The position numbers were made by a program, and so were the translations under genes. The notes under the pieces are model-generated. The model saw only the letters and a program-made list of their open reading frames with translations. It searched no databases and was not told where the DNA came from. A stretch of DNA of 57,730 bases, counting the filler, from Catajapyx aquilonaris (lineage: Eukaryota), in NCBI GenBank assembly GCA_000934665.2. It is 3 parts of 3 records of this genome, joined end to end, with 100 filler letters (N's around TTAATTAATTAA, not from the genome) between each part and the next. Parts side by side here need not be neighbours in the genome. Positions count along the whole stretch, not along the records: positions 38,702 to 57,730 come from JYFJ02006548.1; 2 more parts are not named here. The stretch is one strand, 5' to 3'. Within the stretch, counting starts at the first letter, position 1; every line of letters starts with the position of its first letter. Of this stretch, positions 4,884 through 57,730 are shown piece after piece.

Positions 4884-4980
4884 CTTATAATTGAAGTCCT
4901 AATTGAGCGATATAAAGTAATTATAAAGTCAACAATATTAGTACATTATAATATATTAGCCAAAAGTCGTGTTATAATAC

Positions 4981-5058: not shown

Positions 5059-5139
5059 CTGCAAGCAAATATATGGATGTGGAAAATTACTTGTCACATT
5101 CACCGCATTAATCATCAACAACAAACATACCGTACTTAC

Positions 5140-19153: not shown

Positions 19154-19253
19154 NNNNNNNNNNNNNNNNNNNNNNNNNNNNNNNNNNNNNNNNNNNNTTA
19201 ATTAATTAANNNNNNNNNNNNNNNNNNNNNNNNNNNNNNNNNNNNNNNNNNNN
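19154..19253. other. Artificial contig-joining spacer
   Basis: N44-TTAATTAATTAA-N44, 100 bp, stops in all six frames; identical to 38602-38701. Confidence 0.95.
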
Positions 19254-33665: not shown

Positions 33666-33779
33666 CTGGAAAGAGAATTGCATGTTACTTCTATGGACCT
33701 CCAGTATCTCCTCACTTTTTATTTCCAGGTACTATCGAGCTGTACTCTAGAAAAGTTCAACATATGCCAAGTGACGCAC

Positions 33780-34344: not shown

Positions 34345-34470
34345 CTGCCAAGAAAGAAATCATCAGATGTAAAGTTTTCAGTCTCTTTTCTGATTACTAT
34401 GACATTTAAAATTAAAATTGTTATTTTTCATTTCTGATATTTTTCTTGTACATCTAAGCACCCAACATAC

Positions 34471-35137
34471 CTGAAGAAATGGAAATACTGGGAAGATGAG
34501 ATCAATCTCATATCCTGGAATCTTCTTGCTTGGGTCCAAATACTGCCTACCCATGAGTGATGCTAAGAAGAATATGTACACTGCCAGAGTCACCACCTGC
34601 GTGTAGACCAAAGGTATGCTGACCCAGTCGTAATTGAGCATCCCTCCACACAGGCCTCGAAAGTTGGACAGTTGTTGAATGAGCGTGTTCATGGCAAAGT
34701 CATCTCTTATTCTGCCCTCCTTCCTGGCCCGAGTCACTATACTTCCAGCCCATACCAGTGGCATCCAGTACTTTGGATGCGAGGTCTTCTCATTCAGGTC
34801 ATCAAATATTTTCTTTTCATTGGGCAGCATCAACCCGGCTTCAACCATGTGGTCCAACGTGGGGAACCTCTTTTTCAACTGTGAGCTCATCATGCTCAGG
34901 GTGACCACCAGGGACAGATTAACATAGCGCATGATGGTGCGTCGCATCAGACGTCCTCGATCATCCTGTCCATGGATGCAGGTGGACACAAACATTGCTA
35001 GGGAGTCAGGCCAGGGGATGCCCATGTATTGGTCCCACCAGCGCTTTATCACTATTGAGACATAGAATCCCAGTACAAATGACACTGGAATCAGGTCTGA
35101 ATACTGCTGGCAATATTGGGATATCTTCTCAAAGAAT
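34471..35137 (-). CDS. Bestrophin (Ca2+-activated anion channel, Best1/Best2-like) RFP-TM exon; first coding exon absent from contig
   Basis: IPVSFVLGFYV, RWWDQY, RGRLMRRTIMRY, KKRFPT, YDWVSIPLVYTQVV; acceptor ttgcAG, donor CAG|GTATGT. Confidence 0.95.
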
Positions 35138-35764
35138 CTGCAATATAATAATAAGAACAACATCATTCCCTTCAGTAAAAAAAAAGAGTAGTAAGACCTC
35201 TGTGGCGGAATGAAAGTACTGAAACAAGGCAGGCACATGTAAGACCTTCACCAATTGATCTAAGCTGTACCATAGGTCTTACGCAAGCAATTTCCAATAT
35301 TATACTGCTCAAAAAATCTCCTTTCTGAAAACAGTGAAATGAGCCACTCAATATAAGTGTGTTTTCTGAAATTAGAATCTTCAACATTAAGCACATTGAA
35401 TTTCTATATTAATGGTGAGAATCTATGGCCATAAAACATTTATGCACAATCGTCACCTCTTTTAGATACTGATTTTAACTATGATGCTTAAGTTTTCTAC
35501 ATGGAGACGTAAATTGGTGAATTTTAGAGGCTCTTTTTCAATGGGATTCTGCATTTTCAAGAGTAAACATTTGAAAGTCTGTGAGGATGAGTTCAGTTTT
35601 TTCCCCAAATAAAACATTGCTTTCTGCTATAAGTCTAGGCCTGTGATACACATACTGTGCCAGTTTCATGCTAATCTGAAAGTTGCTACTTTGGATCTCC
35701 TCAAGTTGCCTACATGCATTAAAACATTATCCCTATACAAATACTGTACAGCAAAACTGTTGTA

Positions 35765-37989: not shown

Positions 37990-38601
37990 CTCTCACTCTC
38001 TGTTCCAAATCAAACTCTTGGCTTGGTTAACGGGCAGTTGGGTCTGTACACAGTGTTCCATACCACCCCGATTAGCCACAAAAAGTTAAATCCGTAAGAA
38101 TTTAATTTTCAATCGGACAAGAGTTAATACCGGTTAATACCGATCAAGAGGAAATATTTCAAATTATGACAAACGCATTCATCCATAGGAAACAGTTCCC
38201 CTGAACAATAGCTGACGGCATCACGATTCGTAAGAGCATTGAGAGGTTTGAGCATTGAGCTTATAGACAGTGTATATTATGGACTTTGGGTCGTCACTAC
38301 TTTTCTGTTGTGGTCAAGCGTGTGTGGCCTTGTCTCGAGTCAAAAAATTGGATGGAATTCATCTAATCAACTTTGATCGCACTCAAGTTAAAGCTAGCGA
38401 TGAAGCCATAACGGAACATAACAGACGAAGACTTAAATTCAGGCCGGACCTTTGCAGTTTCCAATTCACTCATTCTAATAAGAGGCATCCAAAGTTCCCT
38501 GACCGAGTCAGGGCTACATCCAAATATGTATACATCGGGTTCAAGAGGATAACCAAACATATCTCCAATGTCAAGTCTCAGACCATGCTGATGGTGGTCG
38601 G
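37990..38601 (+). pseudogene. Helitron RepHel remnant: PIF1-like helicase C-terminus with stops/frameshifts
   Basis: LGLVNGQLG, HRKQFP*TIADGITIRKS, GQACVALSRVKKLDGIHL correspond to SF1B/PIF1 motifs V-VI. Confidence 0.82.
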
Positions 38602-38701
38602 NNNNNNNNNNNNNNNNNNNNNNNNNNNNNNNNNNNNNNNNNNNNTTAATTAATTAANNNNNNNNNNNNNNNNNNNNNNNNNNNNNNNNNNNNNNNNNNN
38701 N
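38602..38701. other. Artificial contig-joining spacer
   Basis: N44-TTAATTAATTAA-N44. Confidence 0.95.
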
Positions 38702-39005
38702 TACCCCTGGGGCATATGTGGAGGCCTCCGTATGGATCTGTTTAGGTCACAAAAGAAAGACAGACAGACAGATATAGGTCTTGAAATATGTATTAGATGG
38801 AGGCCAAAATAAAGCTTGCTCCACTGTTGGACAAAATTGACCAAATGTCACTGTTGCGCTGTCCTGGCTCAAATTTGCGAAAATAGGATTGTCGCTTTAA
38901 AAAATTTCGGACTTGCATTTTTTGGAGGGGATTATTCACTATGACAGTGCTAGTTCCCCCCAACTATTTGGCCAAGTTGAATTAAGTTATGCAGATCAAA
39001 CACTA

Positions 39006-39211
39006 CACTGTAAGCCGCAAAATAATAAAAGAGCATCACTGGCGAGTCTTTCATGGAACATCAATTTTTAATGCTCTTGCGATGCTCCTGTGATACTTTT
39101 TGTTGCTAAAAGCATCACAAGAGCATTGGCAGAGCATTAGAAGAGAATTAAAAATTGATGTTCCATGAGACTCACCAGTGATACTCTTTTAATGTTTTAC
39201 GGCTTACAGTG
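39006..39211. mobile_element. Palindromic MITE with CACTG termini and TA flanks
   Basis: TA|CACTGTAAGCCG ... CGGCTTACAGTG|TA; arms pair over most of the length. Confidence 0.8.
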
Positions 39212-40949
39212 TACATAAAAAATGTGCACGATGCCCCATATTTTGATCTGCATATCATTTGCTAAACTCAATTTTAAATTTTGCGCATTCAGTGCTCCCC
39301 ATTGTAACAACCTATTGACGCATTGCCACATTGTGCAGTTGGCATTACTTTTAAAATCCAGTACTAGTTCGACGAGTTATTTGCGACAAAAAAAATGTGT
39401 CACCATGTGCTTCAAATTTATATTAAAAATTTTGGAAGGTTCCTAGCATTTTCTGTGGCCACTTTCAAGTCCCCAAAAATTGCCAATTCCTGAGTTTCAA
39501 GCCCATGTTTTCAGAACTCAAGGGGGGGAAATTACTCGCTTTCACTTTTTTATGCAGTATATCCCTGCCCATGCTAAATGGCCCCTGTTGAATATGTAGT
39601 GACTAGTTTTCCCAAACCCTCGGTGCTTGGCCCCGGCATTGGCCCCCACCCTGTGCGCACCCTCCAAACTCACCTCTGTTCCATGATGGAGAGGGTCTGC
39701 CCAGCGTCGGCCCAGGGGCAGAGCAGCGGGCAGAGCTGCAGTGCAGAGCGTCACCGGCTTGGCTGGCGGGAGGAGAAGGAATGGGAGGGAGCAGGGGGTG
39801 GGTGGGGAGGGGGACGCCAAGTCAACCAGGCTTGGAAACAAGCGCGACCGCCATTTTTAGTCTAACCAATGCCATGCAGTGCCTGTGTTGGAAGCACGAG
39901 GCTCTGTATTTCCAGGCCTACCCGGCATTTCTCCCTCCCTCTCCTCTCCCCCTCGCTCTCCCTCATTTCCCCTGCCTTGCCAGCTTGCCTTACTTCTCTG
40001 GGGCTCGTGGTGGGTGGTGCGGCCCCGGGACTCGCCCCTGGTGCTTCCCCGCGGGTCCTGCCTGCCTGCCTGGGATGCCGGCGACTCGACCCAAGAGAGG
40101 ACTGGTAGTGAGAAGAGGGCAAGGCTCGTCCGGTCAGGCTTGGAATGGCTGTGTTTGGAACATACGGGAGGAGGACTGGGGGCCAGCCCATCCCTTATTG
40201 GGTAGGTACTACAGTACGCACCAGCTACAACTAATGGTTCAAGTGTGTGCCCATGCACGGTGCACATGAAAAGGTCGAGGCGTGATGCATGGTGCGGAAA
40301 TATATTGCTAATGCGGCACCGATGTTTCGTTAATTGTTTTGATTTGTGTTTCCAAATGTGGCGTATGTAGAGAGGCACTCTAGTGTAGAGTGGTCCGAGG
40401 CTGAGGTGGGGTGGAAATTTATTGGTAAGGGGCACACAAAGCCAAATGTACTGTACATGCTAAAGTGAGACCATTTGTAGTAAGAGAAAGGAATTCTGCA
40501 AAAATACAAGGGATTTTGCCAGGGATTTCTAACAGTTATTTTTTTCCCTCTGGTTTTCCAAGTATTAAGACTTGTTTTCACTGCCGACATCATGTCGCGG
40601 AGCGCACAGTTAAAACAGAGTTTGTTTATCGTGTCGGTCCCTCTGCTCGGACGGAGACGCGAGGGTCTGGGGGGGGCTTGTGTGCGAGGACACATGGAAA
40701 GGCAGTAGAACCATCTGTTCGTGTCTTCCGCGCAAGAAATATGCGCGGTTGTGAAGCAGGTTGATGAGAAGCTCTGAAGAAAACCTGTAGCGGGGACTTG
40801 TAGTGGAAACATCTCCACTTTTCCGAACGAAGATTTCTTGCAGCAAGACATCGGCAGTGAAAATAAGGCTTTACGGCATGTTGTAGGGCTTGCATAAAGC
40901 CTGTGGGTGGATTCATCCATTGCAACTATGTGGTTCATACCCTCTATAC

Positions 40950-41445
40950 CAGGGGTATTCAACCAGTTTCTGACAAGGTCCAGTATTTACCTTTCTTGGG
41001 CCATTGAAGGTCCGGACCCCCCACCCCCGGATAAAAATATAGATTTTATATGGTACCACAGGGTTCATATTTGAAAATATAAACATGTGTAGCAAGGGTA
41101 GGAGGGCCTATCAAGACAGGGCGTATTAAGGCAATATTTCGCCCTTTATGATGTCCTGTACAGGCGTGTAGGCAGAAGAATTTCGGAGGGGGCCCATTTC
41201 GTAAGCAAAAGGTGAACAGGCCGTAAAGGGCGGGGAACGAGCCCACCGCAGGTGAAATTTTTTTGGGGTGAGGTGAGGAGCTTAGGTGAGATATGGGAGA
41301 TTTGAATGGGTGTGTATTTGATGAAATTGTAGCACTTTTTCCAAAAAATCAGGAATTAGTAATTAATCATGCTATTTCAAACTGTCCTGTATATTGTCGC
41401 AGTCCGGACAAAATTGCGTCACGGTCCGCCAGTTGAATATCACTG
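40950..41445. mobile_element. hAT (Buster/Charlie-type) MITE, same family as 871-1352, opposite orientation
   Basis: TIR CAGGGGTATTCAAC / GTTGAATATCACTG; 8-bp TSD CTCTATAC (40942-40949, 41446-41453). Confidence 0.9.
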
Positions 41446-42062
41446 CTCTATACTGTGCATATTACTAGTGTCGGTCACATTTCTGGTGCGAAACATTGTA
41501 GGTTATGCGAGGCTGTCATAAAATACTGCTAATTGTGCCACTGTTTTTATGGTCTGTTACGCAATGACTCGGTTACTCGACCACAACTGGCAGTCACACA
41601 AAGGTCATTCCATGTCAAATCATCACACAGATTGGCCTTGACCCCTCAGATTTTGATGAAACTTGCTGTATCAAGTAGTGTCCTTACATAGTTATGAATG
41701 AAAACCAGAAAAAAGATTTATTTTTTTGCCTACCATTCAAGAGTTATTAAATATTCAAATTGTGCCTAAAACTTAATGCATCTTGAAAAACTCAATAATT
41801 ATTCTCTCAGGAACCAGATATTTGTTGTCTTGGAATAATTTTAATAAATAATTTTTCTGTTACAGGTGGTGCAGGAGATGTATCCTTCCCAACTCCTCAG
41901 ATTCATGTGGATGCTGCCAGATGGATAATGGGCAATTGCAGCTGATTGGATGTGTGACTTAGCAGTAGTTTGTTGGGTGAGATCTTTTTCCCGTCTCTCT
42001 GAAGTAACAGTCACAGACAAATTTTAAGGGTAACCTGGCCATAAATATTACTGCATTAAGTC

Positions 42063-42208
42063 ACCCCTCAGCCACGCTCTCAGCCTCATTTCATGAGGTT
42101 GTCAGTGCCAGAAAATAAAACTGAGGGGAAGATAAAACACCTCTGTTAGGAAGCACTCGATTCCAATATATCCAAGGATGCGGGTGTGCCGTAAACAGGG
42201 GGACAAAT
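42063..42208 (+). ncRNA. SNORA65: Box H/ACA snoRNA, SNORA65(U65)/snR34-like, copy A
   Basis: Hairpin CCCCTCAG..CTGAGGGG, H box AGATAA (42130-42135), hairpin CCTCTGTT..AACAGGGG, ACA (42203-42205)+3 nt. Pockets GCCAC/GCCAG and TAGGAA/GCCG complement conserved 28S CUGGC-UU-GUGGC and CGGC-UC-UUCCUA. The 3' pocket is 15 nt from ACA. Confidence 0.82.
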
Positions 42209-42553
42209 ACTGCTTTGCCGTAATTGAAATGGCATTCTGGGCTAGGATTTCATGCCGGAATGAGTAGCCATTGCTTGCTACATTTAGCAAATTTGGTTGT
42301 TATGGAATTATTTGAAGTAACGTTTGTTGTTGTTTCAGGCAAGGCAGCCCTTCACATCCGGTTGGTTCCTGCACAGGTCATGGGCATTCAGTCGCAACAA
42401 GCTGCATGCGTCACTTAGGACTCGTTTGTTTGGTGAGATTATTTCTTATAACTTCCCTTGAATTTTAAGAGAAATCTACATGCAAAAGTTTGAATTTACC
42501 CCTTTGTCACGCTGATAGCCTCATTTCTTAAGGTTGTCGGTACCTCATCATTA

Positions 42554-42662
42554 AGGTGCGTTTACATGCGAGCGATTTGCTTGCACGATGTCATCGCCGA
42601 GCGATGCCGTTTCTCTCGGCAATGACATCGCGCGATCAAATCTCTCACATGTAAACGCACCT
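42554..42662. mobile_element. PIF/Harbinger-type MITE (paralogous copy 45021-45129)
   Basis: TTA|AGGTGCGTTTACATG ... CATGTAAACGCACCT|TTA. Confidence 0.85.
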
Positions 42663-42715
42663 TTAAACTGAGGGGGATATAAAATTCCTCTGTTAGTGAG
42701 CACTCGTTTCCAATA

Positions 42716-42807
42716 CAGGGTGTTCCGGAGTCGTGGGTCACTTTTTGATCACTGGTATTTCCCGATAGCAGTTATCAAAATGTGACCCACAACTCTGGAA
42801 CACGCTG
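42716..42807. mobile_element. Tc1/mariner-type MITE (paralogous copy 45183-45274)
   Basis: TA|CAGGGTGTTCCGGAGTCGTGGGTCAC ... GTGACCCACAACTCTGGAACACGCTG|TA. Confidence 0.85.
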
Positions 42808-42881
42808 TATATCCAAGGAGGCGAGTGTACTGGAACGTTGGAACAAATATTGTTATGCTATGTAATTGAAATAGTATTCTG

Positions 42882-43010
42882 GGGGTGGATTCATCAAATG
42901 CCGTAAGTAAAATTTTCTTCGTAAGCAGTAGTGACCGTAGTGACCAATAATAATTAACTAACTATGGTTACGACGAAAATTTCACTTACGACATTTGATG
43001 AAACCGCCCC
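42882..43010. mobile_element. Harbinger-like MITE (truncated paralogue 45886-45988)
   Basis: GGGGTGGATTCATCAAATG.CGTAAGT / ACTTACGACATTTGATGAAACCGCCCC. Confidence 0.75.
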
Positions 43011-43812
43011 CACGTTAGCATGTCATGCCGGAATGAGTAGCAATCACTTGCTAGATTTCACATTTTGTTGTCATGGAATTATTTGAAGTAACTTTTGTTG
43101 TGTTTCAGGCAATGCAAGAGATCTGTCCTTTCAACTCTGCAGATACCGGTACAGTTGATTCCTGTACAGGTCATGGACATGCAATCGCCGCTAGTTGGAT
43201 GTGCCACTCAGCACTGGTTTGCCTGGTGAGATACGTTTCTTTACTATTTAAATTTTAGATAACTTCTCAAATTTTAAGGAAAATACCGGTGACTCCAGAT
43301 ATAATAGCCTCGGTTATAACAGACTTTCAGTTATATCAGAGTCGAAGGGCCGGTCCCAGCATACTTCCATATATTTTCCATATATTTTTACTCCTGATAT
43401 AACAGTCTCATTTTCACCACACCTCGGCTGTAACATACCATTTCTTGGCCCCTCGGTGGACTAATATGCAGTTTTTGATTATTCAACTTCCTTGCCCCTG
43501 CGTAGGAAGGCATGGAATACTGGAAGGGGGTGAATTTTGCAGCTTTCGCTGATCTAAGATACTCAGAATCATAATTTTTTTGGTATATTTTGGCAACGGG
43601 GAGATGGCAGAAGAAAATTACATTTTTTATTTGGTCATGGCTAATTCACGGGTGGGGTAATTTTGCATTTTTGTGCATGGAAGGCAGAAAACTTGTGTAT
43701 TCGTTGCAAAAATTGTGATTTGGCTAAAACACATATTTTTCCCACTGTCCCTTGAAGTCTGGTATATCGGCAGTCAACTGCATATACACGCAAAGGTTAC
43801 TGCATCAATTGG

Positions 43813-43951
43813 CCCCTCTGCCAAGCTGATAGCCTCATTCCTTAAGGTTGTCGGTGCCTCATACTGAGGGGGATATTAAATTCCTCCGGTAGGAAGCACT
43901 CAATTTCATTGTCGCCAAGGATGCAAGTGTGCCGTAAACAGTGGTACAAAC
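43813..43951 (+). ncRNA. Box H/ACA snoRNA, SNORA65/snR34-like, diverged copy C
   Basis: Two hairpins, H box ATATTA (43873-43878), ACA at 43946-43948; 3' pocket TAGGAA/GCCG retained, 5' pocket altered to GCCAA/GCCTC. Confidence 0.65.
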
Positions 43952-44529
43952 ATTGCTTCCTTAGGAAATTTTGAACATGCTTTGCTCACTTTGTGCCATC
44001 ATGTTTAGTGGCCTAAGCCTTCGCTCACCAATGATTAATCCAGGTGCAGGCTCAGGTCTAATGTGGGATTTGAACGAGATGGGAATTCACTTTGAAGAGT
44101 GTGTCTGTGATATTCATCAATTTCCAGTCATGAATATTTTTCCCGTTTAATTGCTACGTGTCTCAGATACATGCTAATTACACGACCTCAGTCCTTGTTT
44201 TCTCATCATGGGTAGTTGATAGAGCCCCATCCATGTTGCTGTTGAAAGGAGGAAGTTCAGATTGATGTGATATGATGGATGAGGCAATCAGAGTGTCTTG
44301 AACTTGGTATTTTGGAGCACGTTGTAAATCATGCCTTGTGTTGCAGATTGTTCAACTCATCCAGTTTGCGCAGCTGTATCCTATGGGCCCTATGAAAGTC
44401 CTGGAGTTTCTGAAATTTGGATATGCTACTCAAGAAGGGTTTGTCAGGTGAGATGTGGTTTGTTTTGCTGCATTTTTGGTAACTGTTGCACATTTCTGGA
44501 TGGAAATACGGAATTAGTTGCATAAATTC

Positions 44530-44675
44530 ACCCCTCAGCCACGCTCTCAGCCTCATTTCATGAGGTTGTCAGTGCCAGAGAATAAAACTGAGGGGAAGAT
44601 AAAACACCTCTGTTAGGAAGCACTCGATTCCAATATATCCAAGGATGCGGGTGTGCCGTAAACAGGGGGACAAAT
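44530..44675 (+). ncRNA. SNORA65: Box H/ACA snoRNA, SNORA65/snR34-like, copy D
   Basis: Almost identical to copy A (offset 2467 bp); all boxes and guide sequences intact. Confidence 0.82.
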
Positions 44676-44965
44676 ACTGCTTTGCCGTAATTGAAATGGC
44701 ATTCTGGGCTAGGATTTCATGCCGGAATGAGTAGCCATCACTTGCTACATTTAGCAAATTTGGTTGTTATGGAAGTATTTGAAGTAACGTTTGTTGTTGT
44801 TTCAGGCAAGGCAGCCCTTCACATCCGGTTGGTTCCTGCACAGGTCATGGGCATTCAGTCGCAACGAGCTGGATGCGTCACTTAGGACTTGTTTGTCTTG
44901 TGAGATTATTTCCAATCAGTTCTCTTGAATTTTAAGAGAAATCTACATGCAAAAGTTTGTATTGA

Positions 44966-45315
44966 CCCCTTTGCCATACTGATAGCCACATTTCTTAAGG
45001 TTGTCGGTACCTCATCATTAAGGTGGGTGTACATGCGAGCGATTTGCTTGCACGATATCATCGTTGAGCGATGCCGTTTCTCTCGGCAATGACATCGCAC
45101 GATCAAATCTCTCACATGTAAACGCACCTTTAAACTGAGGGGGATATAAAATTCCTCTGTTAGTGAGCACTCGTTTCCAATACAGTGTGTTCCGGAGTCG
45201 TGGGTCACTTTTTGATCACTGGTATTTCCCGATAGCAGTTATCAAAAAGTGACCCACAACTCTGGAACATGCTGTATATCCAAGGAGGCTAGTGTACTGG
45301 AACGTTGGAACAAAT
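44966..45315 (+). pseudogene. snoRNA copy E, disrupted by the same two MITEs as copy B
   Basis: Duplicate of 42498-42848 including insertions. Confidence 0.75.
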
Positions 45316-45344
45316 ATTGCTATGCTATGTAATTGAAATAGTAT

Positions 45345-45885
45345 ACTAGTATTAGATATGTATATAAGGGGGCTTACCCGGCATAGCCATCTACAGCCCC
45401 CGGCTCCATCAACATCTAATCACCGAATAGTGACAACATCATAAACAAACAAGAAGAGCCAAACAAACCTGGATAAACCCGAAAACCCCCAAGGCGCGAC
45501 CGCAAAAGCAACCACCAAAACGCGCATAGACGCATACAATTTAGAGCGAAACCCTTCACCACCTCAGATTTAGAGAACCAAGAGAACCAAGAGGACCAAG
45601 AGAACCAAACCAGTGCACATTAAAACTCCTCCGGCGACGGAGCTCGCCGTACGGTGACACACCATATTCATCCATTGATCCTCTGGAGCCAAGCATCAGC
45701 CGCCAAACAGAGAGAATTGAAGCTCCTCAGAAGAGATCCCATGAGCATCCTTGAAGAAGGGGGCCAGCCAGCACCGCTCCGCAAGGCCAGCCGCATCACC
45801 CCGGAGCGGGCCTCCCTCAGCTCCGGCGTCCCGCAGTGCCACAACACGTGATCAGGAGTCTGCCGCCCCCTCCCGCAGGGACACC
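45345..45885 (-). mobile_element. 5'-truncated non-LTR retrotransposon (R1-like ORF2 C-terminus and 3' UTR)
   Basis: CPCGRGRQTPDHVLWHC zinc knuckle followed by ..GAGWPP..; absent from the paralogous block at ~42880. Confidence 0.72.
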
Positions 45886-48164
45886 GATTCATCAAATGTC
45901 GTAAGTCAAATTTTCTTTGTAAGCGGTAGTATGGTTGCTGCCACTTACAAAGAAAATTTGACTTACGACATTTGATGAAGCAGCCCACAGGTTAGCATGT
46001 TCTGCCGGAACTAGTAGCAATCACTTGCTAGATGTCACATTTTGTTGTCATGGAATTATTCGAAGTAACTTCTGTTGTGTTTCAGGCAAAATGTGCTTAC
46101 CCAGAGTCTCTCATTACATGCATTGGCTTGCTTTTCAAGCAAATTTTCTATCAAAACTCATGAAAAATGTGTTTGTTTGTTGGGACACATTGACATAATT
46201 CCTTCTTTGTGTCTAACATGTGCTGCATTGTTTATGCAGTGCAGATCACTGCTACATTAGCTGTTACAAGTGCTTTACAGAGCTTCATTCAAAAACTGCG
46301 AAATTCAATCCAGATTTTTGCCTTGTTATCTGCCCAAGAAAAACTTACGGGTGCTCTGTTAATGAGAATCCAATGCTATCCTGCCATGCACAGACCTAGT
46401 GTGGGCTCCAGCACATAGAACAGTGGTTCCTCTTGAAGCCACATGAGTGAGTCTGGCAACCCGCTCGCCCCAGTTAGCCCCAGTGAGCAATGCTAGCGCC
46501 AAATTTCAGGCTGGGGAAGACTCGTATATTAAACTGCTGTAACGTAGGAGTTGGGTGGGGCTGAGATATAAGTGGCAGTTTCGACCAGAACTCTTTCGCG
46601 TTGGTGTATTAACTATGCACCCACCCCATGCAATCGATGTACAACAAAACAACGGGGGGTTGATATTTTTTCGGACTTTTCTTTATCATCCACACCCGGA
46701 TAATCAGGAGTACAGTGTATTTATAATAAGTGTTTATAGGGTCATGGCTGGACTCTGACTGTGAATATTAATTTTGCCCCATTTTCTCATTTACAGTTTG
46801 TGCAAGTATGTGCTGTCAAAGCCCCAGTCGATGCTACCAGCATGCCAGCAAGCTTACCAACTGACGCTTTGGTTTGGCTGGACACACTCTGAGCTTACTC
46901 CCGTCAGGTCAAGAAACTGGATGCTGGAGGGTGGTTCCAGAACTGACATTGCCATATGTCAACATAGAGAGGCAACGATCTTCGTCCTTCGGTCAAGCCG
47001 TCTTCTAGAGTTCCACCTGAATGGACTAACCTATTGATATAATTATGTAAGCTGCCTTGCTCTGGTACCGTTCCCTTCTACAAGAAGATGCCTGCCAGGT
47101 TACGTTTCTATACCAGTCTACAGTCACAACAAATGCTTGACAAAAAAGGAGATAGATCGGGAGAACAACTATCATTTTGTAAATCTGATGGACTCGGTCT
47201 AACTTCTTGCCAAAGGTTCCAGATATAGCATGTTGCTTTAGGGATGGTAGCCACACTGAACTGGTAGTACTTGCCGCTTTGAGTTGTGTTTCCAATGTGT
47301 CAGTAAAAACTTAAAATCGATAATATCAGAGTTGACTTGAGCCAAAAAAAAAAGAAAAGAGAGAGAACAATACTGGAGGACAGAGAGGAAGGACTTGCAG
47401 GAGCACCATGATGATAGCGAGGCCTTTGGGAAGGAGGGAAGGGAAGGGCTTCAATCCCCCAACCATCAAGAGATCCCTTGCGGGATGCTGGCAGGGACAA
47501 CATGAGGGTGGCAGTTGGGAAGAAGACCCAGGGGCCTAATCCACGCCTTCTCATTCAAGATAGATGCAACAAGGCTCAAGTCTCCTCATGTACCATTAAA
47601 TAACAAGATGTAATCAAAGTTGGCAACATGAGACGAGCTGCGGCGGTATCTGCATTGGGGTCAGATATCACCTTTGGCTACACTTTGAGTGTAAAATTTC
47701 CTGCTTATTCACAAAACTGGTAACAATGAGAGGTCAGTGGCAGTGACTGACACGCCCACTTGTCTTGCTTGATCAAGCACACATGAAACATAGCTTGTGC
47801 TGGCTTCCTTCACCTGTACACACAATAAGCTATATTAAGCTGCAGCTTTTGATTGGTATTTTTTCAATTAGGTTGGGATATCATCCCTCGCAGTTGCTGT
47901 GGAACATTTTAAGAACATAAATGACTGACTGTTGCATGCTCATGTTCTTTAGAGGGTCCTCACCGAATTGGTGTACTCCTGCTCCGTGGCGCAGATGATG
48001 AGTGTGACCACCATAGGCATTGTGGTAAGGAAACTGTGCGCCTTGTCTTCTATAGCTCTCTGGCTAGCACACCCTGGTCTGAAAAGCTAAGATCTTGTCT
48101 GCCTGTGCCATATGAGCAGAGGAGGTATCATCAACGTTCATGCTTCAGGGGGACACCTGTTGTT

Positions 48165-48251
48165 TCTGTTCAGTTGATGGTTGGAAAGCTGACCATCCTG
48201 AGGGTCTGTGAATTCATGGCTCATGGTACAGTACAAAACAAAGTTGATGGC
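48165..48251 (-). pseudogene. Isolated class A GPCR TM7/helix-8 exon fragment
   Basis: After acceptor cacttattctAG: AINFVLYCTMSHEF, then QTLRMV after a frameshift; resembles the NFxLY-C-xMSxxFR motif of neuropeptide receptors. Confidence 0.45.
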
Positions 48252-48784
48252 CTAGAATAAGTGAGGGAAAGCTGGAAAAAAATATAAGCTGCCCTTTTTT
48301 TCATTTCTTTTGCTCATGCATGAAGAATTTCCACAATTTTTAGATGTGCTTATGCTTGGACATCACCAGAAAACCTTAGAGTGTTCTTGTAGTGGTCCGC
48401 GGGATGTTGGGAAAGGGTAGGCAGTAACGAGACTGGGTATCAGTCATCTACTGTATTGGTCCTTGACTACATGTTCTCTCCTCAACAGTTCAGGAGGGAG
48501 TGAGGCCGAGGCCTGTACCAAGAAATAAAGAGTAGTAAGGAAGCGCCATAGAGCAACTTACCCACTGATTGGCTGGGCCCCAAAATGATGCGTCCGGCAG
48601 CCGCTCCCGAGCGGCAGTTCAAATGGCAGGTGCTGGCTGCCTGGACTGAAGCCACTTTCTTGCCTGTTTGGCCCTGACGTTTCTGCTGAACCAGCAGTCG
48701 CTCAGCTTGCAGGCAGTTCAGGTGTATAATCTGCGCAAATGTCCTGGTATGGGAGTACATGCGGATAACTTTCCGGTGAATTGC

Positions 48785-48960
48785 TGGATATCTTGCCTCC
48801 CCAGAATCTTTATCTAACATCTTGGAAAAGAATGCCTTGTTTATCACTTTACCAGAAGGTGAAATAATTCCACCGTCTAGAATATGATTTCGGAAAAGCT
48901 TTATCGTGTGGGGCATGTCAGCAAAGACCAGATGCTTCTTGACGGATCAACGGGGTTGAG
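48785..48960 (-). pseudogene. P-element (THAP9-like) transposase fragment
   Basis: ADMPHTIKLFRNHILDGG matches the D-x-x-H-x-x-K-x-x-R-N motif. Confidence 0.75.
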
Positions 48961-48982
48961 AACCGCATCTATCTCCTTCCTT

Positions 48983-49240
48983 CTAGGATACATCAATACC
49001 TGCCAGGTTACATTCCATAATCATTTGGTCCAACTTCCTATCCCTGCTAACTTTCACTTCTTGTACCAGTTCCAACACTAATGGTGATGCATGAGTGACA
49101 TTCTCGCCTTTGAGTTCCATTATTGTTTCTAAGAACTGGAGCATGTGGGAAAGTGCTCGTGGATATGTCAGGTTGAACACATAGTAACACTTAATAAGAA
49201 AGCACACTGCCTGCACAACTGATGATGTCTTCACCCATCA
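48983..49240 (-). pseudogene. Fragment of TE-associated ORF (SAMD3-like/CACTA-associated C-terminus)
   Basis: AVCFLIKCYYVFNLTYPRALSHMLQFLE; family assigned from memory. Confidence 0.5.
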
Positions 49241-50126
49241 CCCAACACAAAGTACTGATTTTCCTGTACTATGAGTCCTGGCTGCTGCATGCCACATTGC
49301 TGTCCTTGCATGATAGCATCCTCTGATGAACAGCCCTCCTAATAGGAGGTAAAAACAACTTAGTGACTGACATTGTTGCGACATTTCTTGTGCAGCAGTG
49401 AACTTAGAGTATATCCTGCACCTAAGTTCACCATTGCACTGTAACAATCCATACCAACAGTGACCTCTATACTTCAGATTGGCATGAAACAAAGTATACG
49501 GTAAAGATATTTAAGTGACACTCCAATTAAGAAAAGCACAACTATACCCGGACTTCCAAGAGTAGTAGCTTGAATGTCTCCTCCGGATCAAGCCTCTTAT
49601 TCCTGAAGGAACCTCTCGGAATGTAAGGCAGAATCTTCAATGTTATCATGTCTCTCTCAGCTGAAACAGGGGCAAAACAGTTGTTAGGGTAAAAACGCAC
49701 ACATCACCTAATGAAGACATTCCTAAGGTCTACCTTCACTTCTGCTGTCAGCATTTTGGATAATTTTTTGGGCAACAACAACTGCGGGTACTTTATTTGT
49801 CCTCAGAAAGTCCTCTGGTTCATATATGCTCATTGCTTCAATTTCAGTAGTGGTCGCCATGTTTCTCCTCACCACCACACTCCCAACCACCAGGGATTAC
49901 TCTCTCCCCTTCCTGTGCTGTGTGGTACATGAGCAAAATTAGGCCAAAACACCTGTAAATGCCACCATGCTATGGCCTGCCTAATGGCTAACAGTGGGCG
50001 CTACTGCACGTACTTGAGCTTGCAGATATCATCTCAGAGTTCTACAAGTATCTCAGTCTCAGACAAGAGCATGAGCAGTTCATGCCTAAGGCGATGACAT
50101 ATGCTCATTGTGACGTCACGCTAATG

Positions 50127-50424
50127 CAGTTCTTCCCAAACTGTGGTAGCGACTCCGTTTGGGGTCGTGAACTTAATATTTTGGGTCGCGAGGGAGGGTT
50201 AAGAAATCATTTTCCCAAAAAGTTCTATTTCCATTGAAGATTATGCCCATAAGGGCGGTTACAGAACAATTCAGATGTTCGACAATAGTACGTAATCAAG
50301 GATTTTCATTTTACTGTTTACCTGTCTTTTTATGTAGGGGGGTGAAAATGTGCAGATATGGGGGGTCGCGAATTTTTCAATGCGACATTTTGGGGTCGCC
50401 AACGAGAAAAATTGGGAAGCACTG
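50127..50424. mobile_element. hAT-type MITE
   Basis: CAGTTCTTCCCAA / TTGGGAAGCACTG with GGGGTCGC subterminal repeats; no matching TSD. Confidence 0.6.
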
Positions 50425-50739
50425 CTCGAAATAGCTCCGCACGCGAGGAAGATACTTGACAATGAAGAGAAGTAGCAGCTTCTTAATATCTGCTTATAAA
50501 ATTTGTGACTGCCATAATACGTACCGTAGTATTGTGGAACACATTTGTATTGTATACAGTCGTATACGACTTCTTCAATAGTAATGTTATACTAATACCT
50601 GTGCTGCTGTTTAAATCGGTAAAATGCTGTCGCCCAACGCGCTCCAGGAGTCGTGGAAAAGCGAGATGATAGTAATCAGGATAGTAACCTCATTCCAGTC
50701 TTCTCCTCCGTGCTCAGAGATACCACGTGAATTTTCGCC

Positions 50740-51195
50740 GCCCCCCCTCAAACAGGTCGCATGGTATTTGCACGACCCCTTACGGGAACATGGAATCCAT
50801 AGAAAATGGATTTCTTCCATTTGCAGTTTAGCCCTCGTGCCATTATGACTTGCACACATGAAAGATGTCCCATTATTGAATCGCTGGCATGATCACACCA
50901 CATCCTAGTATCAACACTCATCTCGTCGAACGAAAAAACGTACATTCTTTGGAAACTGCTGCAACTTTGTGTGCCTGTATGTCCAGGACAACAAGGAAAC
51001 CTGGCGGACACTGAAAATTTTTTTGTCCAATAGCGTAGCGTTGTGAGTCCGGGAAGTGCTTGTAACACTTCTGACAGAGACACCTCAGAGCCAGACCCCT
51101 AAGTATATCGTCCTTCTGCCACCTGGTCCTTCTTTTCTGCACAATGCATCTGATCTGTGCATCGGTGAAAACGTTTTTCAGCACCTTGGCATACT
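50740..51195 (-). pseudogene. P-element transposase N-terminal/catalytic fragment, frameshifted
   Basis: VFTDAQI..RWQKDDI; FSFDEMSV; VQVIMARGLNCKWKKSIFYGF. Confidence 0.85.
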
Positions 51196-51708
51196 CGAAT
51201 TAGCCAGCCGATCACGACCTGCTTTTAACTCAGATGTCCCATCCGATGGGTAGAGCATCCTGCCATATAGGTGACGTATGGCAGGATCAGATGGCACACG
51301 AAATGAGGAGGATGCCGATGCAGGCTTAACATGGATGTTTCCTCTGAGCTTCATGCACTCTCGCAATATAATCACTAGGAGCGTATAAAGGTGGTCCAAA
51401 GCGACCCTCTAGCGTTGAATGCACAGTATCTGCTTCCATCATTGTGTGGCCCTTTTCCAAGATTATTTGCTCAACAACATTCTGCAAATCAGAGGACAAT
51501 GTTGCAAAGAAATCAGGGGCTCAATATAAGATAACAGCACTCTTCCAACATGTTGGAAAATTATGTAAGTATTTTTTATGGAATTATGGACTACAATTTG
51601 CATTTAATAAATGTGTAAGTGACATGCAAAGTCCCTCGACTTAACTGCCAGCTGGAAATTTATTTCCAAGTTTGTCATTGACAAGATCAGGATTATGCAA
51701 AATAACAT

Positions 51709-52260
51709 TCACTTGTGATGTGGGACATTATCCATCACAACCACAGTGGGCTCCTTGCCTAGGTTGAGGATCAACTGCTCATTCAACCACTGCAAGAATT
51801 TGTTGCCATTCATCTGTCCGTGATAATCTGGATTCATTTGGTTTCCACTGGAGAACAGCAGGCCGGTCCCAGGTACAAACCCCTTCTCCCCTCCAGCATG
51901 GACCACTACGAACCGTGGCCCATCTGACTGCGGCCTGGTAATGCAAGTGGCTGCTGTGCCATCCTGCCAGCCGTACTTTGATGTCGCATTCTGAAATGTC
52001 CCAGTTTCGTCCATCCAGACGTCCAGTTTTGGCTGAGGTGAATTAGGGTTGTTCCGCATTCTTCTGAGAAATGCTATTCGCTTGAGTGCAATGTCCGTCT
52101 TCTCTAGCAGCTTAAGTCGGTTGTCCATTTTTTTCCACCGGAAGCCCAGCTTCTTCAGGATCTTCCTGAAGGGCGAAATTTGACCTTGGGAGGGGACGTC
52201 TACCTTCTTGACCCCTGCCAATAGCCCGGGCTTCAATCGATTACAAATGTTGAATAGAAC
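51709..52260 (-). pseudogene. IS630-Tc1-mariner (DDE_3-type) transposase fragment
   Basis: LKKLGFRW, VWMDET, VVHAGGEKGFVP, DYHGQMN, VVVMDNVPHH; truncated before the third catalytic residue. Confidence 0.88.
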
Positions 52261-52559
52261 TGGAACTTCAACTATTCCTTGGTGATGCTCTGGATGTGCT
52301 TTATTTGTAAAGCAGACTTTCATAATATGGAATGCTATACATTACGTTTGTTGGTCAGAATTGAGTACAGTGTTATGTTATGAAAAGCAGTTTATAGTGA
52401 GTGTATTGACCGTTCGGCGAAGAAGGAAACTAATATTAGGATATAGGTATTGCAGGCGAAAAAAAAGTATGAGCCATACGTAGTATAGACAGATAGGAAC
52501 AGATAAATAGGTGAAATAGAAAGGTAAAATATAAAGAGACAGACAAGAATCCTTTTCTA

Positions 52560-53400
52560 TCGTTTACTATCTAATTTATCGATATTAAATTCACGATTTT
52601 CGTATTTCCGATAATTTCGGCAGAATGTCGCTTTCTGCGCATTTACCGAAGTTCCTCTCAGCTTTGCGATCGTGAATTTCCAGAGGACATTCCCGACGTT
52701 TCTTATCATTTGTAGCTGTCTTGTTCTGTATGGAAAGTCTGTCGCAGGTGCTGCATGTATCTTGCCGCGGTTTTCCTGAAGACAAATTAAAATCTGTGGC
52801 GAAGATTCGTGTGAAGGTTTCCACACTGACAGGGGTCTTGGTCCCATCATCGGCAGAACAAATTGCTGTACAAATTGCATGTACATTCTGCTTATGGAAA
52901 GCTCTGGCGAGAGATATGAGCGATGTGTATTGGATGATCGGGTATATAGTGTGACGTTTCTGTAGGGTATGAACGAATGCGTCCTTCATCTGAATATATT
53001 CTAATGGTTCCTGCATGGCTAAGTTGTACTTTTTTTTGCAGCGTGTTCTCAACTCCATGACACCTTATCTGGTTTTGCGGCATGTTCTTTGCTGCAGTGT
53101 TCGTGCCATTAACGCCTGTGTATTCTTCTCCCCGAGATTTGCTCCGTTTACGAAGCACTTATTCCACTGCTCTGATTGCCTTTTTTGAGGGACCAGCCAT
53201 GCAAGGAATATGCTCGTCATCCGCCATCTTTGAATCTTGCTGCTAGGGTTGCCTTTAATGCTAAGTATCACGGCACGATGATTTTTTTTAAACCGATTAA
53301 ATGTCAGGGTGCCACTTGGCAGATACCCCCTTATTCATGCAAACCCATATATGCTTGAAAATGGCAGGTACCTCCATCTCGCCCCGGGCCCTAGAGTTGT
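52560..53400 (-). pseudogene. Sola1-like transposase N-terminal fragment, frameshifted
   Basis: FTRIFATDFNLSSGKPRQDTCSTCD motif; upstream SHY segment. Confidence 0.68.
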
Positions 53401-54019
53401 TGATGTTGATCCCGTGACATCAACACTACATGCTGAGTCGATAGAAATTATCTCAGCGGATGATTGAAGCTGTTGCGCTCCCCTCATTATGGGAGTGACT
53501 CCAAGTATAGCCCATGGCCCCTTGTCACTCACAAACAAACAACAAGCAACACACAAATTTACCAGTTAAGTCTGACAAGTATTACTTCTGCAGATTCTAC
53601 AGATCTCTGCAACAAAAAAATACGCGCCATGACTTTTGAACCAACCCATATGAGCTCATAACAAACCTGCATTTTCACGTAGGTTCCTATCATCTTTTCT
53701 TCTGGATATCCAGGACAGTGAAATTGTGACTTTACATGGGCGGGTAATGTCCCTTCTCAAATGATGTAGCATACCTGGGGCATCATCCTCTGTGTGAACT
53801 TTTTGACATGTCCCTCACATGCCTTTAGGTATTTCACCAGTGGATCTGGAGCTACTTTCAAACTGTCAAACGGTTTGCCTGTGCCCTGCACATAGCTTTT
53901 TGGGATCATCTATGTCTACCTTGGCAACATCCAACATCTTGCACTCCTGGCAAGGGTGAAAGGGTTTGTGAGTTTTTAAAGACCTTAGAATCATATCCGT
54001 GTCGGACTACTGTAGTATC

Positions 54020-54254
54020 TGATCCAATGGAGGAAGCCACCATCTACAACGTTGATAATCATTTTAAGGTCCATAGTTGTACTACTCTCTGCAGGAAATG
54101 CATCATACAGTGATGACTTCATTGACATCACCATTCCACCCTCATTGAAGAGGGCCAATGGAATGGGGATAACTCATACCTTTAAAAATCCGCAACATCT
54201 TCATCACTCTTTTTTTGCAATAGTGGTTCTTTGGAAAATCATTAGAGGGTCCAT
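54020..54254 (-). pseudogene. Academ-like transposase fragment
   Basis: Manual translation MDPLMIFQRTTIAKKSDEDVADF*RYELSPFHWPLFNEGGM..KSSLYDAF..NVVDGGFLHW. Confidence 0.6.
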
Positions 54255-54475
54255 TTGATGGAATTACTCACAGAGGCCAATGGCAAGCCTATATTCTTTT
54301 TAGATTGCTTGATGTCACCAAAATTACTTTCAACCATATGTAGGTATAATGTGTTCTGGTTATAATATTATAGTTAATAGCCACCATTGTAATAAAAACT
54401 TCCTTTTTAAAAAGTAAAACTAATATTTTCAACCATTTTTTTCGAAATATGCGCTTTTTCATCCCCCTCTATCTT

Positions 54476-55100
54476 CTAAACTATTGATCCTACAGAAGAC
54501 ATGTACAGGTGAAACAAGTTGTCCCATTTGGTCAATTTTTTTGGAACCCTGTTGTGGGCATCGGATGAGTTTTTCCTCTTCCTGCCGTGGCGCTCCTTAG
54601 ATGTCCATTCATTCATATAAAATAATTTGGTGGTCAAACTCATCCTGTGTTCCCTGCATGACTCTAGAGAGAACCATTCACTGAAGCTGGACTCAGTCGC
54701 GGCCGTCATTTTATTTACCAGCTGAGATCTGATGTTATTTGTGTGGCATATGTCTGGGTAGGCCTCCTCCATCACCTGCAATTGAAGCCTGACTACGTTG
54801 CAGAACTCTTGCGACGGCACACGCAGATGTCCAAAGGGGTTCGAATCCTTGGTTGGGTGCGCCTTCCAGAACGTGAGCACGTTGGTTTTTCTTCCCATGG
54901 CCAATTCATCGTCATGTTCCAGTAGCGTGGAGGTGCAGGAATCGCAGTGAGATTTCTCGAGTAAACGGTGCAGCAGGAATCCAGCGAAGTACGCAGCAGC
55001 GGACTGAGACAGGTCACTCTGCCCAGGCTTAGTCCCCGTGTCAGCAGTGGACTTGAGGTAATCATGGTCGTGCGCGACAACGCTGGTCATCACAGGGACT
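54476..55100 (-). pseudogene. P-element transposase C-terminal fragment
   Basis: AYFAGFLLHRL..CDSC..L; GHLRVPSQEF. Confidence 0.7.
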
Positions 55101-55104
55101 AGGA

Positions 55105-55450
55105 CTTGCAATAGCAGGGAAAAGTGACAACCACCTTGTTTTGGACTGTGATAGAAGTTGCTTATAACTGGTATCAACAAACTCACAGAAAGACTTCAAC
55201 TCCTCGGTTCTGACAGTATAAATTATTGAGAAATAGTTGTACATTTTCAAGATTAAGCATTCTACATCTATTGACACATTGTCAGCTCCATAATGCAGTG
55301 CATTGTGTAAAATGTGTGCTGTACACATTCTTCCCTCCTTCCTTACGATTGATGCCCCCAAAATTAGTGTTTGTGTTGTCCACAGCAAAACCTACACACT
55401 TGAGATACTTCAGCAATGATTCTACATCTTTCACCTTAAGGACCTTAATG
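55105..55450 (-). pseudogene. hAT transposase fragment
   Basis: CTAHILHNA (CxxH) and KTRWLSLFPAI. Confidence 0.82.
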
Positions 55451-55539
55451 GGAAGTACTGTACATCATTGTGGTGATAGAGATCAGGACAATCCAATGAT
55501 ACCTGGGCATTAGGTTTGAGAATTCTGAATCTGCTGTGG

Positions 55540-55975
55540 TTGACTCCACTCATCAGCTTTGATACTTGCAAGTCATTTATGTGGTCAGAGGAATAAGAAA
55601 AAAACTTTGTATGTGGATATCAGAATTCTTTCCTTGTTATTTACCACTGATTTTCTGTAGAAGGGAGACAGGTGGTCTGTATAACCTTTGAAATCAGTAG
55701 TTTGCATGCGAACAACTTTGAACTTTCGTTCTACCATATTTTCCCAGTCCTTGTGAGTTTCGATTTTTTTTCCGCCTGCCCTTTCATTCTTTCAATGGAG
55801 GCAAAGTGCCGATCAATAGACTGTGCCCTGGTATTGGGAAGTGTTGTACAATCCTATCAAAGCGCCCAAGCTTCACCATAGAAAAGAGGAACTGAATAAC
55901 AGCCGAATTAAGATTTTGGCCAGGGCATGCATCGGAAAAGATGTGGAGATAGCGTACTGTTTCTGGCAAAGGTGG
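55540..55975 (-). pseudogene. Sola1-like transposase catalytic fragment
   Basis: LHIFSDACPGQNLN...IVQHFPIPGHS. Confidence 0.78.
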
Positions 55976-56014
55976 GCACAGCTAACCGAAAAAATCAGCT
56001 TCTCTAACAGCTGA

Positions 56015-56200
56015 TCAGCTAACTTCCTTAGGACATATGATTTTAAGTTGTAAAGACTCCCTGCCTGTCCTTTTATGATAACATCCTTAGGCTTGCATAA
56101 GGCGCACCGAAAATTGAGAACATTGTTGTTCTTTGTGTCCCTGGAGACGAACACGAAGTACTCTGCTAGGTGGGGCCAAGGGTTCCCATCGCCATCGCCA
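56015..56200 (-). pseudogene. BED-type zinc finger of a hAT transposase
   Basis: PWPHLAEYF...FRCALCKP...SLYNLKSY. Confidence 0.62.
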
Positions 56201-57269
56201 ACACTGTTCTTCTCGTTCTCGGATTCATCCTGGCCCTCAGCTTCCGCCTCACCCACAGCCACAAGTGTGGCAAACATCGTCACCTTGACCTTGTATGATC
56301 CACCAGGCACCAGTCCACCACACCAAAAGACTGCGGGGGCCCCTTCCCCCCCTGTGTTTAACCATCGCGGCGCCACAGCGACATCTACCGACGACTTTTG
56401 TGAGCATCAGCAAAAGGGCCGAAGTCCAGGACTAAGGTCCTTCTGTTACGCCTTGGAATTTTCACGGCTTTTTTCATCATGAATGTAGTATGGACTTCGG
56501 TCTGTCTCACACGCCCTGAGATGGCGGGAGGGTTCATCTACGTTTTCATGCAATGAAACGAATTTCACCAAATTGTGGACTTAGGCCCTTTCTATTCTCC
56601 TAGCTTCAATTATATTCATTATATTTTCCCGTTTATTGCTCATTTTCTCATCATATTTATGTGAAGGAATAATCCTCAAGAAAATACTCACACATTAACA
56701 AAATAATGCACGCCTCTGGACATGATTTTTCATTTACTTTCATTCTCTTATAATGAAGCTCTAACTTAGTTGAAAAATAAGCAGGTACTGTCAACGAGTG
56801 GCATCCACTTCATAGATATCAAATCCTTCTTTTTTTCGGCTGGCAGAGATGATCCTTTTCTTGTCTTTGCACGTCGGATGCTACACTCTTAAGTCATGAA
56901 ACGTCTAAATGCCTCTAAATAGAGGTTTAAAAAGTGCATGTTTTTAAACCTCAACTTTAGAAGGTACATGAAACCTATAAAATACAAGGTACCTTGTAGC
57001 CTCTCCTCTCGAGGCCTTTTATAAAGGTGCATTTTAGAGGCTACGTCCAGAATTAAGGTTACAACAAACCAATGAAATTAATTACTACGGATTAATGCAT
57101 ACACATTAGCATGTTTTTATTTCTCTGACATGACTTACATGGCCACTGAGGTCTGAATATACTGAAAATATACAAACATGCATACTTAACATATAGACAT
57201 AACCCTCAAGTTTGTCCCTTTTGTTCTGCATATAATATCAGTATGAGGGTAGGCAGCCACTTATGCAAG

Positions 57270-57730
57270 GAGTGGCAAGGAGGGGACCGCTTCAACCATC
57301 ACCCTCCGGTACCTGGAGCTGAGCAGCAGGGCCAGCGGTGCGTATTTGTCGAGTTTGAGTTGCCGAGCCGCTTGAAGAGATTCCGGTCTGTTGTCAAAGG
57401 GGGTCGTCACATCGACGATGATGGCAGTATCAGCTCCTTGGGTCAGAAGAAGGTCGGGGCGCAGCGAGCAGCCAGGGAAGACCTGCGGGTTACATCTTTT
57501 GACAGTGAACTTAGCCGAAGCCGCTCGCTTGACCCTCTCCACTACTGAGTCATGCCTCTTTTGGTATGCAACCGAGTGTCGGGCCATGCAATGATCAAGG
57601 ACATGAGGCAATCAACCCAGACTACCACTTCAAGATCTTCGTTCCTCACAGGGCGACGATGAGGTCCTTCGGCACGGAGCCCCGGGAGGAATGACCCGTG
57701 CTCTCGCAGCTGCTTCACCAGGCGCTGGAT
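57270..57730 (-). mobile_element. RLE-type non-LTR retrotransposon fragment (NeSL/Utopia-like C-terminus)
   Basis: LPHVLDHC, RHDSVV, LRPDL, IIVDVTTPF, KLDKY: zinc knuckle remnant plus PD-(D/E)xK endonuclease; runs off the window end. Confidence 0.85.

Follow-up and report, generated by a model that had tools for sequence, protein, structure and literature searches.

Could one RNA polymerase II (Pol II) transcript carry both the guides for ribosomal RNA (rRNA) modification and a source of PIWI-interacting RNAs (piRNAs) against transposable elements (TEs)? The question is raised by a locus of Catajapyx aquilonaris (assembly GCA_000934665.2) in which a host gene for small nucleolar RNAs (snoRNAs) is followed by an array of TE remnants in antisense orientation. 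The window, meaning the whole stretch of DNA analysed, is 57,730 nt long and consists of 3 parts joined with 100-N filler. The locus lies in positions 38702-57730, which are JYFJ02006548.1. The initial annotation proposed that host and array form a single transcription unit. Both halves, the snoRNA host and the polarised TE array, are real. The reading that run-on transcription of the host feeds a one-strand piRNA-type array is tentative, and we put its probability at roughly 0.4.

The plus-strand snoRNA host array of the initial annotation was recovered as described. It has five exons (A-E, 94-117 nt), each starting after AG and ending at GTGAGAT, followed by a sixth acceptor at 46086, and there is one H/ACA snoRNA copy per intron. 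Its parts are as follows.

41866-41976, plus strand: host exon A, the first recognisable exon; it has an acceptor
42064-42208, plus strand: snoRNA copy 1, SNORA65/snR34-type H/ACA, both guide pockets intact, 5' pocket unusually far from the H box
42339-42432, plus strand: host exon B, paralogue of A, C and E
42498-42848, plus strand: snoRNA copy 2, a pseudogene with two miniature inverted-repeat transposable elements (MITEs; 42553-42663 and 42713-42810) and altered guides
43109-43225, plus strand: host exon C, paralogue of A, B and E
43812-43951, plus strand: snoRNA copy 3, 3' guide retained, 5' guide altered, weak fold
44347-44447, plus strand: host exon D
44531-44675, plus strand: snoRNA copy 4, 1 base off copy 1
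44806-44899, plus strand: host exon E, recent duplicate of B
44965-45315, plus strand: snoRNA copy 5, a pseudogene, duplicate of copy 2, broken by two MITEs
46086-46446, plus strand: exon F, with a duplicated acceptor and just 4 nt of homology to exon C; 46447 and 46483 are candidate donors, and an ATTAAA occurs at 46528
46797-46800, plus strand: strong candidate acceptor (crude score 9.4, the top of 10 sites scoring at least 6 in 39.5-47.5 kb)

Exons A, B, C and E are mutually paralogous, and exon F is unrelated to them apart from its first 4 nt. Because exon A carries an acceptor, the true first exon must lie upstream; it was not found. A recent 829-bp duplication inside the host has 95.9% identity. 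Mis-assembled alleles were considered as its source and rejected, as the flanks differ and there is no gap. All five GTGAGAT introns carry a snoRNA copy, and short exons with one snoRNA per intron are the layout of Uhg/SNHG-type hosts. The genomic open reading frames (ORFs) of the host region have no Pfam match. Spliced A-E contains stops in all frames except for one 138-codon open stretch (p 0.015 against mononucleotide and 0.06 against Markov shuffles, the exons not being independent). This open frame, in spliced exons B-E (42339-44899), has a repeated Cys/His-rich motif and is borderline against shuffles. The GTGAGAT at 41286 was rejected as a host donor, since it is within a MITE (40950-41441). 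We tentatively regard the host as a non-coding-looking plus-strand gene enlarged by exon-intron duplication, which would be expressed and spliced.

The five intronic copies comprise two with all guide elements (1 and 4), one diverged (3) and two broken by MITEs (2 and 5). Copies 1 and 4 share the two-hairpin H/ACA fold and common guide motifs with SNORA65/U65 (Rfam RF00302) and yeast snR34. The RF00302 model matches 42080-42208 at 35.8 bits (E 0.00094) and 44547-44675 at 35.6 bits (E ~0.001). No copy reaches the Rfam gathering score (70 bits), for which the window has zero matches. Our own model, built from three copies, recovers five, one per intron, and no other copy at E < 0.2. After 46000 no further snoRNA was found with this model or with Rfam at E up to 1. 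Rows of the Rfam output for microRNAs were rejected, as they sit on palindromic MITEs.

Copies 1 and 4 fold as hairpin-hinge-hairpin-tail (z -5.7 and -5.4; 0 of 200 shuffles equally stable), and the fold of copy 3 is weak (z -1.4; 17 of 200 shuffles as stable). An H box in the hinge and an ACA three nt before the 3' end are present in copies 1, 3 and 4. The 3' pocket is 15 nt from its box in all three intact copies, within the expected range of 14-16 nt. The distance from the 5' pocket to the H box is 17 nt in copy 3 and, counted by eye, 23 nt in copies 1 and 4, for the same expected range; the 23-nt spacing and a score below gathering are differences of copies 1 and 4 from SNORA65/U65. Both 5' guide halves are correct in copies 1 and 4 alone, and these two carry an A-rich stretch that pushes the pocket to 23 nt. 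Copy 3 has near-normal 5' spacing but altered guides. The 5' target may be poorly served.

The pattern of four guide halves has at least 108 metagenome matches, and 106 of the 108 listed share one spacing; viral contigs gave no rRNA match for it. Eukaryotic large-subunit (LSU) rRNA accounts for 18 of the 20 matching loci tested, the two misses being the two odd spacings; the guide pockets were chosen with the rRNA sequence in view, so the complementarity is confirmed but was not discovered blind. In LSU rRNA the two target uridines lie 54 nt from each other. Between copies 1 and 4 the snoRNA has changed at 1 of 144 bases; outside it, the 829-bp duplication shows 31 differences in 670 bases (Fisher p 0.03). 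This low divergence suggests selection or conversion; slow divergence fits selection on the snoRNA, and hence its expression.

The second half of the locus, described earlier as an antisense TE mosaic, was borne out in that every recognised TE coding remnant from 45.3 kb to the window end is on the minus strand. The remnants are listed below.

45348-45885, minus strand: probable 3' end of a non-long-terminal-repeat (non-LTR) retrotransposon, CCHC knuckle and 3' untranslated region, inside the last snoRNA intron and missing from the paralogous intron
48485-48946, minus strand: P-element-type transposase remnant, start of the GTP-binding insertion (tblastn E 1e-4 at 48791-48940; hidden Markov model)
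50751-51199, minus strand: P-element-type transposase remnant, N-part of RNase H (Pfam PF21787 E 4e-4; tblastn E 3.6e-6)
51200-51520, minus strand: presumably the C-part of a DUF7869-like transposase remnant, from its motif
51712-52341, minus strand: IS630/Tc1-mariner DDE transposase remnant (Pfam DDE_3 E 1.2e-4; 6 plasmid records, 4 of the 6 annotated as IS630 transposase)
52594-53300, minus strand: presumably the N-part of a DUF7869-like transposase remnant, from its motif; homologues not found
54479-55114, minus strand: P-element-type transposase C-terminus (139 relatives at E <=0.001 in the full HMMER search; 10 of 10 tested carry TNP-like Pfam domains)
55114-55391, minus strand: what we take from its motif to be a hAT-like transposase remnant; no match in Pfam, PDB or viral contigs
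55588-55981, minus strand: DUF7869 remnant (Pfam PF25273 E 0.003, below cut-off)
55990-56406, minus strand: what we take from its motif to be a BED-finger-like N-part; no match in Pfam or PDB
57264-57730, minus strand: R2-like (restriction-like endonuclease, RLE) non-LTR retrotransposon C-terminus, cut by the window end (motif; R2 proteins take the top 3 of 4 PDB rows, E 0.12-0.65)

The pieces at 51200-51520 and 52594-53300 are probably one insertion, and those at 55990-56406 and 55114-55391 probably one hAT insertion. With collinear pieces merged there are about 8 insertions, all minus (two-sided p 0.008), of which 5 have database support (p 0.06). The database-supported pieces, likewise all minus, are the three P-type pieces, the IS630/Tc1 DDE, the DUF7869 (E 0.003) and the R2-like end (E 0.12). 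DUF7869 is associated with transposons. The CCHC and non-LTR identity of 45348-45885 is presumed from its motif, with no match in Pfam or PDB. This piece was also considered as a sense LTR promoter, which was rejected, as the piece looks like the end of a non-LTR element on the minus strand. Decayed minus-strand frames at 48986-49900 resemble by eye the transposon-associated proteins of another group; they have no Pfam support and were excluded from the insertion count.

Pfam gave nothing useful for 16 of the 20 re-tested TE frames, DUF7869 being the sole informative row. PDB had no meaningful match for any of the hAT-like, BED-like or CCHC frames, and three TE frames had no relatives among viral contigs. 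Neither 54479-55060 nor 52594-53064 had homologues among longer proteins, and the former was later recovered by the full HMMER search. The reversed-window control of the P-type transposase search was empty.

A strand-blind coding score was higher on minus than on plus in 33 of 45 array windows (p 0.002), with scores above 5 bits numbering 7 against 0. Its mean difference was 3.5 against 1.05 +/- 0.70 in shuffles, above all 60, and control regions were neutral (16/26, 35/71 and 26/55 windows). In 1-46 kb Pfam found no TE domain in the ORFs scanned (93/94, 100/105 and 102/104 of those listed). The transposase remnants are concentrated in the 46-57.7 kb block. The only plus-strand TE-like coding piece noticed is a frame at 38267-38599. 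It carries what we take to be a Pif1/Helitron-like helicase motif just before the gap and has no Pfam match.

Host and array had been placed side by side with no spacer or gap. The absence of a gap holds: there is zero N in 38702-57730 and no assembly gap between the two halves. A spacer does exist, with ~2.4-2.7 kb unannotated between the acceptor at 46086 and the array, and the first homology-supported fragment after the acceptor is 48791-48940. The 100-bp gaps at 19154-19253 and 38602-38701 carry a six-frame-stop linker mid-gap and are read as scaffold joins.

It had also been argued that 46086 lacks a paralogous GTGAGAT donor after it and may open a very long terminal exon. The motif is indeed missing from 44900-54947, and one does occur at 54947, inside a transposase remnant. 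The absence is explained by the homology with the paralogous unit, which ends at 46089, four bases into the exon, so that exon F never carried that donor. The long exon itself fared badly. Donor-like sites at 46447 (5.3 bits) and 46483 (5.9 bits) score no worse than the paralogous donor of exon E (5.0), on crude scores from general consensus frequencies; a strong acceptor follows at 46797, and splice and poly(A) signals further downstream are at chance level. Continued splicing (46447/46483 to 46797) is more likely than a single terminal exon of great length.

The reading that we prefer would operate as follows. A plus-strand non-coding Pol II gene would have grown by exon-intron duplication and would host U65/snR34-type H/ACA snoRNAs in its introns. 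Splicing would release the snoRNAs, which would direct the pseudouridylation of two uridines in the peptidyl-transferase region of 28S rRNA, 54 nt from each other. At least some of the host transcripts would run on past the last snoRNA intron instead of terminating there. The run-on RNA would possibly be spliced further (46447/46483 to 46797), rather than kept as one long exon, and would enter the TE remnants, which are antisense to it, to be cut into antisense piRNAs. The minus polarity would then be due to selection for antisense content. A polarised array calls for a plus-strand transcript, and the host is the only plus-strand unit found upstream of it, with no gap between, so the host is favoured as the source. 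An antisense retroelement end (45348-45885) is already within the last intron of the host. That the array is a piRNA source we consider fairly probable; given that it is, we lean towards its use of the host promoter, and the two estimates multiply to the 0.4 given above.

Several observations weigh against this reading, beginning with the promoter. None was found, and TCT, TATA and DRE motifs are missing from the plus strand of 38.7-41.9 kb; no TCT consensus for a 5' terminal oligopyrimidine (5'TOP/TCT) start was seen there, and the first exon was not located. The distinct CpG-rich promoter earlier proposed at 40.2-40.9 kb has an unremarkable composition (40200-40900: observed/expected CpG 0.85, GC 47%; its 500-nt windows at the 72nd-79th percentile of 534 by CpG count) and is mostly inverted-repeat element. 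Two elements lie here.

40567-40871, no strand assigned: inverted-repeat element, probable MITE by our reading, with 28-nt arms 82% complementary
40950-41441, no strand assigned: MITE with an 8-bp target duplication, matching 906-1060 and 1275-1352 at 91-92%; the GTGAGAT at 41286 lies inside it

Two thirds of the CpGs of 40200-40871 (20 of 30) fall between the arms of the first, and observed/expected CpG is 1.05 inside it against 0.62 in 40200-40566. A single 8-mer at 41472, which we take to be Motif-1-like, is a weak lead. An alternative promoter candidate is 39600-40199 (GC 63%, purine and pyrimidine tracts), possibly bidirectional; what we take to be a YY1-like motif is on the minus strand at 39857.

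The remaining points concern polarity and continuity. The six-frame motif scan found 12 hits on minus and none on plus in 45.8-57.5 kb (a single plus hit at 38.3 kb; 0 in the reversed window), with motifs picked after reading the translations of both strands, so that the scan is not independent; several fragments depend on these motifs. The host itself leans minus on the strand score (14 of 17 windows), and part of that score is therefore base skew. After 46086 the plus strand is not depleted of signals (donors 23 against 24.4 expected, AATAAA 3 against 4.1 expected). Candidate stop signals precede the first supported TE fragment (ATTAAA at 46528 and 47595; AATAAA at 48524), and the unannotated interval between acceptor and array could have room for a separate promoter. 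On a continuous transcript from host into array the sequence signals are neutral.

The alternative that survives best is that of two neighbours. A short final exon would close the host, the ATTAAA at 46528 or that at 47595 being possible ends, and a separate promoter in 46.5-48.5 kb would drive the array as a one-strand piRNA cluster. This reading has in its favour the poly(A) hexamers and the unannotated spacer ahead of the first supported fragment. Papers are cited from passages here and below; in these, flam-like clusters use discrete promoters (PMC10643416) and 2 of 25 Aedes core clusters stand alone (bioRxiv 10.1101/2022.08.22.504762). The arrangement is unlikely all the same: the composition of the spacer, the sole aspect of it examined for a promoter, gives no sign of one (17-23 CpG per kb in 46-49 kb), the hexamers are not followed by U-rich downstream elements (T fraction 0.18-0.24), and an antisense insertion sits inside the last intron of the host.

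It is improbable that a single plus-strand transcript exists with no piRNA role. The array would then form a long intron or the 3' tail, either of the host or of a longer gene with later exons past the window end, and sense insertions would have been purged as truncating or mis-splicing. Such a transcript fits the donors (46447, 46483 and others further on), the 18 acceptor-like sites of 46086-57720 and a window that ends within the array. It does not account for dense coding remnants of several DNA-transposon groups, missing from the other 46 kb. Moreover, 46-57.7 kb holds no further snoRNA, and a pure snoRNA host would need nothing past its last snoRNA intron, which would leave little to select on. 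Least convincing, and very doubtful in our view, is a polarity unrelated to the host, the block lying within the minus-strand bestrophin gene, in a large intron, or arising by oriented insertion or capture, and not being transcribed on plus: the bestrophin exons for residues 1-60 are missing from the window and lie in the gap 38602-38701 or beyond 57730, so the locus may nest in a bestrophin intron, but nesting would not explain polarity, the remnants would be sense to the bestrophin pre-mRNA, contrary to what we take to be the usual intronic bias, and neither long terminal repeats nor element ends were seen to frame the array.

In the bestrophin gene itself (33760-35139, minus) one coding exon is unusually large. 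Over the 120 rows listed, identity is 74-77% to dragonflies, grasshoppers, stick insects and cockroaches and at most 70% to spiders and ticks, a pattern that indicates an arthropod, probably a hemimetabolous insect. Elsewhere in the window, an isolated CpG-rich frame at 14137-14934 (plus) encodes three cadherin repeats (Pfam E 7e-44), and no other cadherin exons were recognised next to it. A 337-codon frame at 4975-5985 (minus) lies on a 54-bp tandem repeat, and 17190-18429 is a 1.2-kb palindromic element with 166-bp internal repeats.

The locus bears on how one-strand piRNA clusters acquire promoters outside flies, mosquitoes and mammals. The exons of a snoRNA host are disposable, so such a gene could be a low-cost donor of a strong promoter, and here the 5' edge of such an array can be seen behind a spliced unit. 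If the two are linked, transposon defence would be tied to the ribosome-biogenesis programme and would be hard to lose or silence. If they are unlinked, this is an ordinary U65 host beside a polarised array.

Among known systems, chicken U65 likewise has two 28S targets 54 nt apart (3858 and 3912). It differs in lying in intron 4 of RPL12 (PMC2653536), whereas here five copies lie in a non-coding-looking host. Drosophila Uhg hosts share the non-coding exons with one snoRNA per intron, and their loci are bound by the piRNA-pathway factors Cutoff, Rhino and UAP56; in the passages concerned they are not reported as piRNA precursors or as preceding a TE array (PMC5473144; PMC9710044). A piRNA derived from a GAS5 snoRNA has been reported (PMC4402533). 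At the Prader-Willi locus there are snoRNA arrays and a piRNA cluster, the cluster being placed in another gene (PMC4171697). The corresponding part of PMC8559710 has nothing further on hosts. Titles and abstract openings, most subscription papers and supplements being outside this scope, yielded no snoRNA host that drives a TE-antisense cluster.

The read-through precedent invoked in the initial annotation is real. Such clusters are known in mosquitoes and mammals, and unistrand clusters are spliced. In mosquitoes a one-strand array lies just downstream of a same-strand gene, as here, and the upstream genes of Culex are enriched for ribosomal-protein genes (bioRxiv 10.1101/2022.08.22.504762). 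The published upstream-gene tables could include snoRNA-hosting ribosomal-protein genes, which would make the coupling implicit in known cases. The mosquito clusters differ in that their upstream genes are annotated, several of them shown to be translated, with 'snoRNA' not occurring in the main text; their transcription and piRNAs were measured, whereas the Catajapyx locus is known from sequence alone; and they are rich in viral inserts, whereas the Catajapyx array holds mainly DNA transposons (bioRxiv 10.1101/2022.08.22.504762). The mammalian piC-DoGs are spliced precursors with extended 3' ends, driven from promoters of coding or non-coding genes, and dense antisense TE fragments follow directly after the host, a layout like that proposed for Catajapyx. 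They are unlike the Catajapyx locus in that retroelements dominate and no snoRNA host is named in the main-text passages, supplementary host lists being outside this scope (PMC11615739).

There is also a resemblance in form to flamenco. Flamenco and the flam-like clusters are spliced one-strand units with TE fragments antisense to transcription; unlike the unit proposed here, they have their own, discrete promoters, a Gypsy-specific bias and lengths of hundreds of kb (PMC10643416). The Catajapyx array, at least 9 kb long, instead combines P, Tc1/IS630, hAT-like, DUF7869 and non-LTR pieces. The locus may be, with the odds somewhat against it, a flamenco-like precursor aimed mainly at DNA transposons whose short 5' exons double as a snoRNA host, such that the introns of one Pol II transcript would supply guides for rRNA pseudouridylation and its 3' part would supply antisense piRNAs.

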